NCBI RefSeq assembly: GCF_016026235.1
Contig: NZ_CP065613.1
Direction: 5' to 3' (one strand)
DNA from: Escherichia coli
GTDB taxonomy: Bacteria; Pseudomonadota; Gammaproteobacteria; Enterobacterales; Enterobacteriaceae
DNA: 64,000 bases
Positions 36,001 to 39,000 of this stretch are shown one piece after another. The position numbers were made by a program. The stretch's first letter is position 1; the number at the start of each line of letters is the position of its first letter.

Positions 36001-39000
36001 TTCCTGCATAGATTTAACCGGCCATCTGAGATGGCCGACAGGTTAACATAATTACAGCCATTTAGGGCCACGCGCTCAGCCCGCAGGTGAAAACGCATCT
36101 ATCACCTTGTGATCGACACCTTCATTCTCCCCCGCCAGTTCGGCACTGAGCTTCGCCATAAACTCGACTAAAAATTGCGCGTTGTGCTGCGCCAGCTGCT
36201 TGCCTCTTACGGTTTGCATGGTTTGCGGTAGCTTCAGCAACTTAGTCTGGAAATGATCCAGCGCGTAGCGTTTATCATCAAGCGGGCGATACTGTGCGAA
36301 CGGATCTTCGCCATCAAACAGCGCCACGCCCAATGCCCCTGAAACGGCAAACACGCGCGCCAGGCCAATCGCCCCCAGGGCTTCCAGCCGATCCGCATCC
36401 TGGACGATTTTAGCTTCCGTTGTTAAGGGGGCGATTTGCGCGCTGAAACTGTGAGCGGCAATGGCATGACAAACGGCCTCGATTTTCTCCGCCGGAAATT
36501 GCTCGAACTCTTCACGGAGCAGGCGACGCGTCTCTTCTGCCGCCAGGATTGAAGAACGCTGCCGTTGCGGATGATTTTTCGCCAGGCTCACAATATCGTG
36601 GAAATAACAGGCGGTTAAAATCACCAGCATATCGACGTCATCATCTGCCGCCAGCTTCTGTGCCGTAGCCCAGACGCGGCGAAAATGATACACGTCATGG
36701 GCCGCGTCCTGGTGCTGATGATGGTTTTTCAACCAGTTTTCGAACTGTGTCTGCCAGTGTTGTAAGTCCATACGCGCTCCGTTGCCAAAGAGTCGCCACC
36801 TTAGCAGTTTTTATTCATAGCGTCTGCTACGTGCGGGACGAGGTCGGGTGTACCAGGCAATGCTGCCTAACAATGCCCCGACCAGAGCCATAAATAAAAA
36901 TCCGACCAGTGCCCCTAACCACTTTCCCGCGGTAGAGCCTAAATCGCTTTCAAATCCCGACACGGGGGCATCGGGGATCCGGCTCATCACCCAGATGTAA
37001 CGCGCCATTGCCCAGACGAAATAGCCACACCATGTATAGAAAGCTCACAAAGCCAGTTTGCCACCAGGGCTGCGAGAGAGCCTCTCTTCCATCTTTGTCG
37101 AACCGTATTCCATTTTGAGATAACCCGGAAAATTCAGACTTAGTACTATTATGTGATAAAAGTCACATTTTTCCACATTGAATGAGCCAGTCAAGACTCA
37201 ATCATTTTTTGAACAAATAGATAAATTTTGCGCAACGGCAGTGAATACAGGAAAAATCGTTTTGAGCGATTTTATTTATCTTTGATATCGGCTTTATTAA
37301 TTCATTTAATCAATATATTAGCACTGAATACAATTATACCTTTTTATTTTTCTGTGTCATGATGCCTCCGTTATTAGCCTTTTATCGTCTTGTTTATATT
37401 TTTTGGGCCGGCATGATGCCGGCTTTTTTATGCCTTCATTAATGTGCGCGTGATCACACCAGCCGTTTAGCGCATCAATCATTGATACCCCCTATCTTTC
37501 CGCTAAACTCATAATATATTGATATGAATTGATAATTTTCATGAATACTTATGTTTAGAATTCATAATTCTGAATTATATTAAATATATTAGAAACATTT
37601 TGAAATCTTTTAAATATATTTGTTACATGTAATCTTTAAAATAAAATGAACTTCATAGAATAGTATCCAAATGTGCTTTTTTTGGATAACGGCACTTATT
37701 GATATATTCATGAAGATTATAATCACAAGGGAATACATAATGAAAAGAAAAGTTCTGGCAATGCTGGTCTCGGCGTTATTAGTTGCTGGCGCAGCAAATG
37801 CGGCTGAAATTTATAATAAAGATGGCAATAAACTGGATCTGTACGGCAAGATGGTTGGTGAGCGCATTCTGACCGACCGTGAAAATGGTGAAAAAGGCGA
37901 TAATTCTCAAGATACCTCTTATGCCCGTGTAGGCGTGAAAGGTGAAACTCAGATCAACCCTGAATTGACTGGTTACGGTCAGTTTGAACTAGACCTGGAA
38001 GCATCAAACAGACACAACCCTGACCAAACTCGTTTGGCTTATGCTGGTTTGAGTTACAAAGATTTTGGTTCATTCGACTATGGTCGTAATGTCGGTGTCG
38101 CGTATGATGCAGAAGCATTTACTGATATGTTTGTTGAGTGGGGCGGTGATTCATGGGCTGGTACTGACCTGTTCATGACCAACCGTACCAACGGTGTTGC
38201 AACCTATCGTAACACAGATTTCTTTGGCATGGTTGAAGGTCTAAATTTTGCTCTGCAATATCAGGGTAAAAATGAAGGTACAGGCAACTACAAAGCAAAT
38301 GGCGATGGCCATGGTTTATCTGTAACTTACACTATTGACGGTTTCTCATTTACTGGTGCTTACGCAAACTCTGACCGTACTGATTTCCAGTCTAGTGATA
38401 GTAAAGGTGAAAAAGCAGAAGTTTGGGCACTGTCAACAAAATATGATCCCAACAACGTCTATGCTGCTGTGATGTACGGTGAATCTCACAACATGAATTC
38501 CGACGACGGTGATGTTGTGAACAAAACACAAAACTTCGAAGCTGTTCTGCAATATCAGTTCGACTTCGGTCTGCGTCCATCCATCGGTTACTCCTATTCT
38601 AAAGCACTGGACGTAGCAGGTTACAAAGATTCTGATCGTCTGAACTACATTGAAATCGGTACCTGGTATTACTTCAATAAGAACATGAACGTATATACCG
38701 CTTATCAGATCAACCTGCTTGATAAGAGTGATTATGTTCTCGCTCATGGACTGAACACCGACGACCAACTCGCATTTGGTATCGTCTACCAGTTCTAATC
38801 AGCCAACGCGCCGCGGCGTGTTACTGTAAAACATAACACTAGCCTGAGTTCGTCCCTCATCGAACTCAGGCTTTTTTATTGGCATTTCATCTCCATCTGC
38901 GGCACACGCAATTGCCAAAGCATATCGATACAGCACCTTACCCTGCCCCTCCTGGCACAATATCTCTACCAGCTACTCTTCCAGCCAACACTCCAAATAC

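Follow-up and report, generated by a model that had tools for sequence, protein, structure and literature searches.

Salmonella ompS1 is a quiescent porin gene that is silenced by H-NS and StpA and activated by LeuO (PMC4264507). Its E. coli counterpart is treated in the literature as yedS, listed as 'yedS (ompS1)', the expression of which drops upon sigma-E induction, similar to that of other porin genes (PMC2731931). In wild-type K-12, the small RNA gene rseX is not detectable, and hns mutants derepress rseX and 'surrounding areas' (PMC8313858). According to a passage in the citing paper PMC4048246, the resistance mode of Warner et al. 2013 involved a clinical isolate in which the YedS porin was active, and a passage in PMC11267920 cites the same work (Antimicrob Agents Chemother 57:1935) for yedS and carbapenem resistance. 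In addition, a STEC membrane proteome contained a putative porin, not placed to a locus or an allele, whose homology to K-12 YedS was 50% (PMC9731836).

The stretch of DNA analysed here, hereafter the window, comprises 64,000 nt of E. coli contig NZ_CP065613.1 and carries a porin gene at the position of K-12 yedS. Our analysis makes it quite likely that this is an intact general-diffusion porin gene of the OmpF/OmpC/PhoE family in the yedS (ompS1) slot, representing one of several very old alleles and probably kept quiescent by H-NS. Judged from the citing passages, the YedS porin of Warner et al. 2013 resembles it in locus, in being intact in a non-K-12 strain and in belonging to the OmpC/OmpF family; the likeness to Salmonella OmpS1 is by locus naming. 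With OmpK35, the window porin has in common the form VEWGGD of the loop L3 motif, and it has all OmpF constriction residues, but it is not located at the ompF locus, scores below the OmpF equivalog cut-off and has shorter loops L4 to L7. With K-12 yedS and its relatives (type D below), it shares the position, the promoter region, the signal peptide, the last five codons and the terminator, whereas type D is OmpC-like, longer by about 45 residues distributed over L4, L5, L6 and L7, and 59-60% identical in protein sequence.

Organization of the locus

The gene order dcm-yedJ-drpB-rseX-[porin]-hchA-hprS is that found around yedS in K-12 (Table 1), and positions 1-46245 of the window were colinear with E. 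coli AR_452. The arrangement dcm-yedJ(-drpB)-porin is also kept in K. oxytoca, Citrobacter and E. fergusonii. It was noticed that drpB of the window carries a nonsense codon. The rseX gene lies on the same strand as the porin gene, about 310 nt upstream, at a relative position equivalent to that in the K-12 annotation, and ends in a terminator hairpin (37405-37425) followed by a T run. The region between rseX and the porin start codon was 83-98% identical over all allele classes (91-98% against K-12). Its GC content was as low as 0.21 at 37500-37699 compared with about 0.5 in the flanking genes, bearing out the first-pass annotation, in which it was described as very AT-rich. Scanning upstream of the porin gene for sigma-70-like promoters gave 10 weak matches versus 7.6 expected by chance, and no promoter was assigned. 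All alleles retain the terminator that follows the porin gene.

Table 1. Features of the yedS locus in the window
Feature	Position (nt)	Strand	Evidence or remark
yedJ	36076-36771	-	neighbour, yedS locus
drpB	between yedJ and rseX	-	neighbour, yedS locus
rseX (small RNA gene, own terminator)	37341-37430	+	Rfam RF01401, 96.9 bits (gathering score 50), E=3e-13
AT-rich upstream region, putative promoter and 5' UTR	37431-37739	+	GC 0.21-0.33
Porin CDS, allele A of the yedS/ompS1 locus	37740-38798	+	intact ORF, Pfam Porin_1, match to OmpK35 (9hn1), WP_000824345.1
Sec signal peptide, 21 codons	37740-37802	+	cleavage ANA/AE, rare P11S; alignment to OmpF and OmpK35 precursors
Allele-specific hypervariable body (mature protein)	37850-38785	+	identity per 100 nt, dS, alignment boundaries
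Intrinsic terminator of the porin gene	38841-38880	+	12-bp stem with 7 G-C pairs, 8-nt loop, then TTTTTTATT
hchA	39390-40241	+	neighbour 3' of the porin gene

The porin gene and its product

Translation gave an unbroken ORF of 352 codons, running from the ATG at 37740 to a TAA at 38796-38798, with no internal stop codon. An in-frame ATG at 37671 would lengthen the ORF by 23 residues. The start at 37740 is preferred because it is preceded, 8 nt upstream, by a Shine-Dalgarno sequence (AAGGGA), opens a canonical signal peptide, and is equivalent to the start chosen by RefSeq for the gene of AR_452, which is 99.9% identical and is the locus of the RefSeq 'porin' WP_000824345.1. The N-terminus, MKRKVLAMLVSALLVAGAANA followed by AEIYNK after the predicted cleavage, could be aligned with the signal peptides and mature N-termini of OmpF and OmpK35, and the mature start coincided with the first residue of the mature chains in PDB. 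The C-terminus, FGIVYQF, ends in the aromatic residue of the BAM beta-signal. The first-pass annotation of a complete 352-aa porin with signal peptide and C-terminal signature was thus correct in coordinates, length and features. Between alleles A to D (see below), the signal-peptide nucleotides were the same except for one C to T change, resulting in S11 in the window copy in place of a proline conserved in at least 90% of the 36 homologues.

Residues 27-352 matched the whole Pfam Porin_1 profile (PF00267, positions 1-337 of 337) with 366.9 bits (cut-off, 23.7; E=1.6e-109). The NCBIfam equivalog models scored 409.6 bits for OmpF (cut-off, 583), 407.2 for PhoE (cut-off, 599) and 386.6 for OmpC (cut-off, 484); since all three were far under their cut-offs, the protein is a member of the family but none of OmpF, PhoE or OmpC proper. 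The closest solved structure was K. pneumoniae OmpK35 (9hn1, E=9.4e-130), followed by PhoE and OmpF, with OmpC more distant; the third PDB match was 5o78, a chain from K. pneumoniae entered under the name PhoE, and the fourth was E. coli PhoE (1pho). In the HMMER alignment to OmpF (3hw9), the basic ladder K16, R42, R82 and R132 and the acidic L3 residues D113 and E117, i.e., the constriction residues in OmpF numbering, were all conserved (6/6). In contrast to PhoE, in which K125 is the selectivity determinant, the window protein has N at the aligned position. An AlphaFold2 model built with the 36 homologues predicted 16 strands (mean pLDDT, 76.9; pTM, 0.75), with low confidence in a part of loop L3 (residues 136-148). 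Taken at sequence level, the gene is a complete member of the OmpF/OmpC/PhoE family, closest to OmpK35, and very probably functional.

Allelic lineages in the yedS slot

At least three deep allelic lineages were found to occupy the slot: 1) lineage A, encoding 352 aa, intact in the window strain and AR_452, 2) lineage B/C, comprising type B (357 aa, intact in strains 4314 and W409) and type C (371 aa, intact in O25:H4 strain 18044 and in PMV-1), and 3) lineage D, intact in NCTC9699 (397 aa), S42 (404 aa) and UID2309220033, with a range of 397-404 aa, and frameshifted in K-12 and O157:H7 F8797 (about 397 aa). Protein identities were 68-69% for A versus B, 67-68% for A versus C and 90% for B versus C, and type D was 66-67% identical to true OmpC. 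Megablast matches of 107-110 nt (94.5-98%) labelled 'ompC: porin OmpC' were considered as true ompC and rejected, as they are D-type yedS alleles named by PGAP; the 5' end of true ompC is clearly unlike that of the window porin.

The divergence between alleles is sharply bounded. Per 100 nt, identity to types B, C and D was 40-88% within the hypervariable body and 91-100% in the flanks. Divergence sets in at about codon 24 and becomes strong at about codon 38, and the last five codons are again common to all alleles. Values of dS between A and the other alleles were 1.2-1.7, i.e., saturated, in the gene body, but low in codons 1-36 (0.08-0.17) and in yedJ and hchA (0.04-0.13). The alleles thus predate the species. 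In the barrel, L3 and turns, dN between alleles was 0.13-0.30 versus a dS of 1.2-1.5, indicating purifying selection on the barrel; two sublineages within allele A differed by 17 synonymous and 12 non-synonymous codons. Indels between alleles were confined to surface loops (L1, L2 and L4 to L8) and absent from strands, the sole exception to the loop location being a single residue in periplasmic turn T4 between A and D. Identity was 46-50% in loops and 61-75% in strands. The slot thus holds divergent lineages with near-identical promoters, signal peptides and terminators, and with differences mostly in surface loops.

From these alignments, the alleles may have arisen either by import from other genera, with the conserved flanks as the route, or as a long-standing polymorphism. 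It is conceivable, at somewhat less than an even chance in our estimate, that the slot represents a hypervariable, cassette-like locus for porins that has gone undescribed, and that it is maintained by balancing selection over long times (through phages, colicins or antibodies) or by repeated allele replacement between genera via the conserved flanks; no description of such a cassette-like allelic pattern at the slot was found in the literature searched.

Occurrence in E. coli and other genera

Complete E. coli genomes (n = 5426) were surveyed at a query coverage of at least 80%, using for allele A its specific 3' half at an identity of at least 95%. Allele A was present in 1124 of them (20.7%), a number that counts presence of the sequence, intact or interrupted. 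The K-12-type (D) query matched 1662/5426 genomes and the C-type 3'-half query 923/5426, and about 750 more matched the C-type query over its last 291 nt alone at about 83%, which we read as type B. The lineage shares of complete genomes therefore amount to about 21% for A, 31% for B/C and 31% for D. In a spread sample of allele-A matches, 29 of 30 were full-length and one was split by IS2. Decay of the locus is sporadic, as exemplified by the IS2 inside allele A of SH21PTE31. The window sequence falls in a protein cluster of 2356 members, nine contigs in NCBI encode the exact protein, entered as an E. coli 'porin', and B/C and D are annotated as intact porins in many strains. An intact porin at this slot is therefore common in E. 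coli rather than unusual, and it is K-12 that is unrepresentative. Both the kind of gene and its locus are known, and the gene is frequent and annotated in E. coli, so that the finding, though real, is ordinary.

Outside the species, the best non-Escherichia match found was the slot porin of K. oxytoca, with 69% identity to A; that of Citrobacter was 67% identical to A and is followed by umuDC-like genes. No close relative of A outside E. coli was present among the matches of the homologue search. E. fergusonii carries two tandem porins in the slot, the first being of B/C type (85-86%) and the second having a different signal peptide and identities of 63% to D and 54% to A. An origin of the alleles from tandem paralogues with differential loss was considered and rejected, because this second gene is too unlike both D and A and has another signal peptide. 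Types B/C were 78-86% identical to the E. fergusonii and Citrobacter porins, and on this sequence comparison B/C looks like the vertically inherited lineage.

Regulation

An AT-rich regulatory region is characteristic of H-NS-silenced 'quiescent' porins of the ompS1 and ompS2 type, and the window gene has one, with a GC content of 0.21-0.33 over 37431-37739. Because this region is AT-rich and K-12-like, and in view of the rseX and ompS1 literature, silencing of the window gene by H-NS may reasonably be assumed; the gene is probably held at low expression by H-NS/StpA acting on the AT-rich upstream region.

Control of YedS by MicF and MarA was reportedly observed by Warner et al. 2013. When MicF was searched for duplexes, using nt 1-40 for positions -80 to +45 and nt 1-33 for the whole porin mRNA, only background pairing was found, so that the MicF pairing reported for that YedS is not detectable in silico for the window allele. 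The best MicF pairing at the porin translation start had -12.6 kcal/mol (z=+0.4), compared with -27.4 kcal/mol (z=-4.8) for the ompF control. Pairing of RseX with the yedS leader was likewise at background level in the duplex search.

Alternative explanations

The window gene could be the undamaged ancestral form of K-12 yedS, from which K-12 would differ solely by inactivating mutations. K-12 yedS (b4496) is indeed annotated as a pseudogene, in agreement with the first-pass annotation, and its translation is interrupted by a stop codon in frame at about codon 162 and, further on, by a frameshift. The two genes occupy the same position and have near-identical upstream regions, signal-peptide codons and terminators, and alignment to K-12 yedS, as had been proposed, gave 91-100% in the flanks. 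The mature part, however, was only 40-77% identical per 100 nt (about 37850-38785), with the 3' half left unaligned by blastn; the proteins are 59-60% identical and differ in length (352 versus about 397 aa), and dS between A and the K-12 type is about 1.5-1.6 in the gene body. Moreover, intact K-12-type genes exist separately in NCTC9699 and S42. Because of these alignments we regard the ancestral-form explanation as refuted, with hardly any probability left to it: the gene is intact and in the position of K-12 yedS, but it belongs to another allelic lineage and is no undamaged version of the K-12 gene. No more credible is an origin from the neighbouring prophage by lysogenic conversion. Lc/NmpC are extra OmpC-family porins, silent or broken in K-12, that lie inside lambdoid prophages, and downstream in the window there is a Mu-like tail module (sheath, tape measure, DNA-circularisation protein, baseplate J and tail fibre genes) with an IpaH-type LRR-NEL E3 ligase (effector) gene carried by the same prophage. 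Unlike Lc/NmpC, the window porin is situated in conserved chromosomal backbone; the prophage starts at about 46246, beside a 62-nt 3' remnant of serU, and is separated from the porin gene by 7.4 kb and seven backbone genes, with hchA, hprSR, hiuH, msrPQ and zinT in between. AR_452 has the same allele at the same place without the prophage, and the slot is occupied by a porin in other genera too. As the two are 7.4 kb and seven genes apart and the allele occurs in AR_452 without the prophage, their proximity is coincidental, and the link to the prophage made in the first-pass annotation does not hold.

A gene that is intact on paper might still yield no protein in the window strain, owing to permanent silencing or to an export defect caused by P11S, and would in that case be on its way to becoming a pseudogene. 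The AT-rich upstream region, the replacement of the highly conserved P11, the decay of the locus elsewhere (frameshifts in K-12 and O157:H7, IS2 in SH21PTE31) and the nonsense codon in the neighbouring drpB are in line with this. On the other hand, hydrophobic cores of signal peptides usually tolerate substitutions of this kind, and purifying selection on the barrel is seen both between and within alleles. The STEC membrane proteome also includes a porin 50% similar to K-12 YedS, although it is not placed to this locus or allele (PMC9731836). We therefore consider absence of the protein unlikely, though it has the best prospects of the alternatives discussed here. The product could also be a specialised channel, e.g., one selective for anions or phosphate like PhoE, as the PhoE model scored nearly as high as that of OmpF (407 versus 410 bits) and PhoE chains (5o78 and 1pho) ranked third and fourth among the PDB matches. 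Against this, all three equivalog scores lay far under the cut-offs of 583, 599 and 484, and the residue at the PhoE K125 position is N, so that PhoE-like specialisation seems very improbable.

Proposed function and implications

On the preferred explanation, an intact general-diffusion porin in the yedS slot, the product is predicted from the model to be a 16-stranded outer-membrane porin of the trimeric type. Once made, it would be exported and inserted by BAM, and would then allow the passage of small hydrophilic solutes, including beta-lactams and carbapenems. H-NS/StpA bound to the AT-rich upstream region would keep its expression low, as in Salmonella ompS1 and at the adjacent rseX, so that the porin would be relevant mainly upon relief of silencing or loss of both OmpF and OmpC.

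An extra porin can restore beta-lactam and carbapenem uptake in cells that have lost OmpF and OmpC, and it may also serve as a receptor at the surface; the role as a phage or colicin receptor suggested in the first-pass annotation is a generic possibility. For the interpretation of resistance genotypes, it is therefore useful to know the yedS allele of a strain and its state, intact or broken. The names given by PGAP are inconsistent ('porin' for A, B and C, and 'porin OmpC' for D) and can mislead automated calls of porin loss, and K-12 serves poorly as a reference here. The window porin itself is a routine member of the variable backbone of E. coli, and the ancient, bounded polymorphism of the slot is a mildly interesting by-product of its analysis.

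Genes flanking the porin and naming of yedS

Upstream of the porin, codon 23 of drpB was a stop in the window versus TGG (W) in K-12, whereas the remainder of the predicted protein was identical to that of K-12; the longest surviving ORF of this remnant, beginning at M36, encodes 65 aa. The AR_452 copy is likewise flagged as a pseudogene in RefSeq, with "internal stop" as the reason. The sRNA gene rseX shared its orientation with the porin, which it preceded by 310 nt, and differed from that of K-12 at a few positions, such as TTATTTTT in the window versus TTATTATT in K-12, and GCCTCC versus GCTTCC, respectively.

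At the RefSeq yedS-slot loci L009-L012 and L003-L006, PGAP named D-type (K-12-type) yedS "ompC / porin OmpC" and the A, B and C types plain "porin". Because of this split, genomes may seem to hold two ompC genes, and an apparently broken ompC can really be yedS. In E. fergusonii GCA_002965935.1, the same slot carried two porin genes followed by a TrkH-family gene and then hchA; the second porin shared no more than 63% identity with any E. coli yedS allele and had a different signal peptide.

Features in and around the yedS slot and the prophage region
Feature	Location	Strand	Remarks
drpB (yedR)	36811-37113	-	nonsense codon at W23
rseX	37341-37430	+	Hfq-binding sRNA gene with own terminator
tRNA-Ser (serU)	46184-46245	-	3' 62 nt only
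Methyltransferase-domain ORF	46918-47586		prophage region
LRR + NEL ORF	48200-49543	+	leucine-rich repeats; NEL E3-ligase domain at the C-terminus (Pfam NEL, E=4e-77)
Mu-like myovirus tail module	49723-62724	-	tail-fibre N-terminal domain, Baseplate_J, DNA circularisation protein N-terminus, tape measure, tail sheath
Two tandem porin genes (361 + 369 aa)	L017 4001-6772		E. fergusonii, yedS slot

Colinearity with AR_452 and the prophage edge

Colinearity with AR_452 was interrupted at 7118-7985, located in the flagellin gene and probably representing the variable centre of fliC, and at 15398-16259, where about 0.86 kb in the window corresponded to about 4.7 kb in AR_452 containing emrE, ybcL, ybcM, an IS200/IS605 remnant and tnpB. 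It stopped exactly at the end of the serU fragment, which looks like an att-site remnant bordering a prophage; ARAGORN detected no complete tRNA in the whole window.

Within the prophage region, the ORF adjoining the methyltransferase-domain ORF was labelled ipaHe in its best E. coli genome match. Its leucine-rich repeats and C-terminal NEL domain mark it, by domain content, as an IpaH-family type III effector, and its presence suggests that the strain background is of an enteroinvasive E. coli or Shigella-like type.
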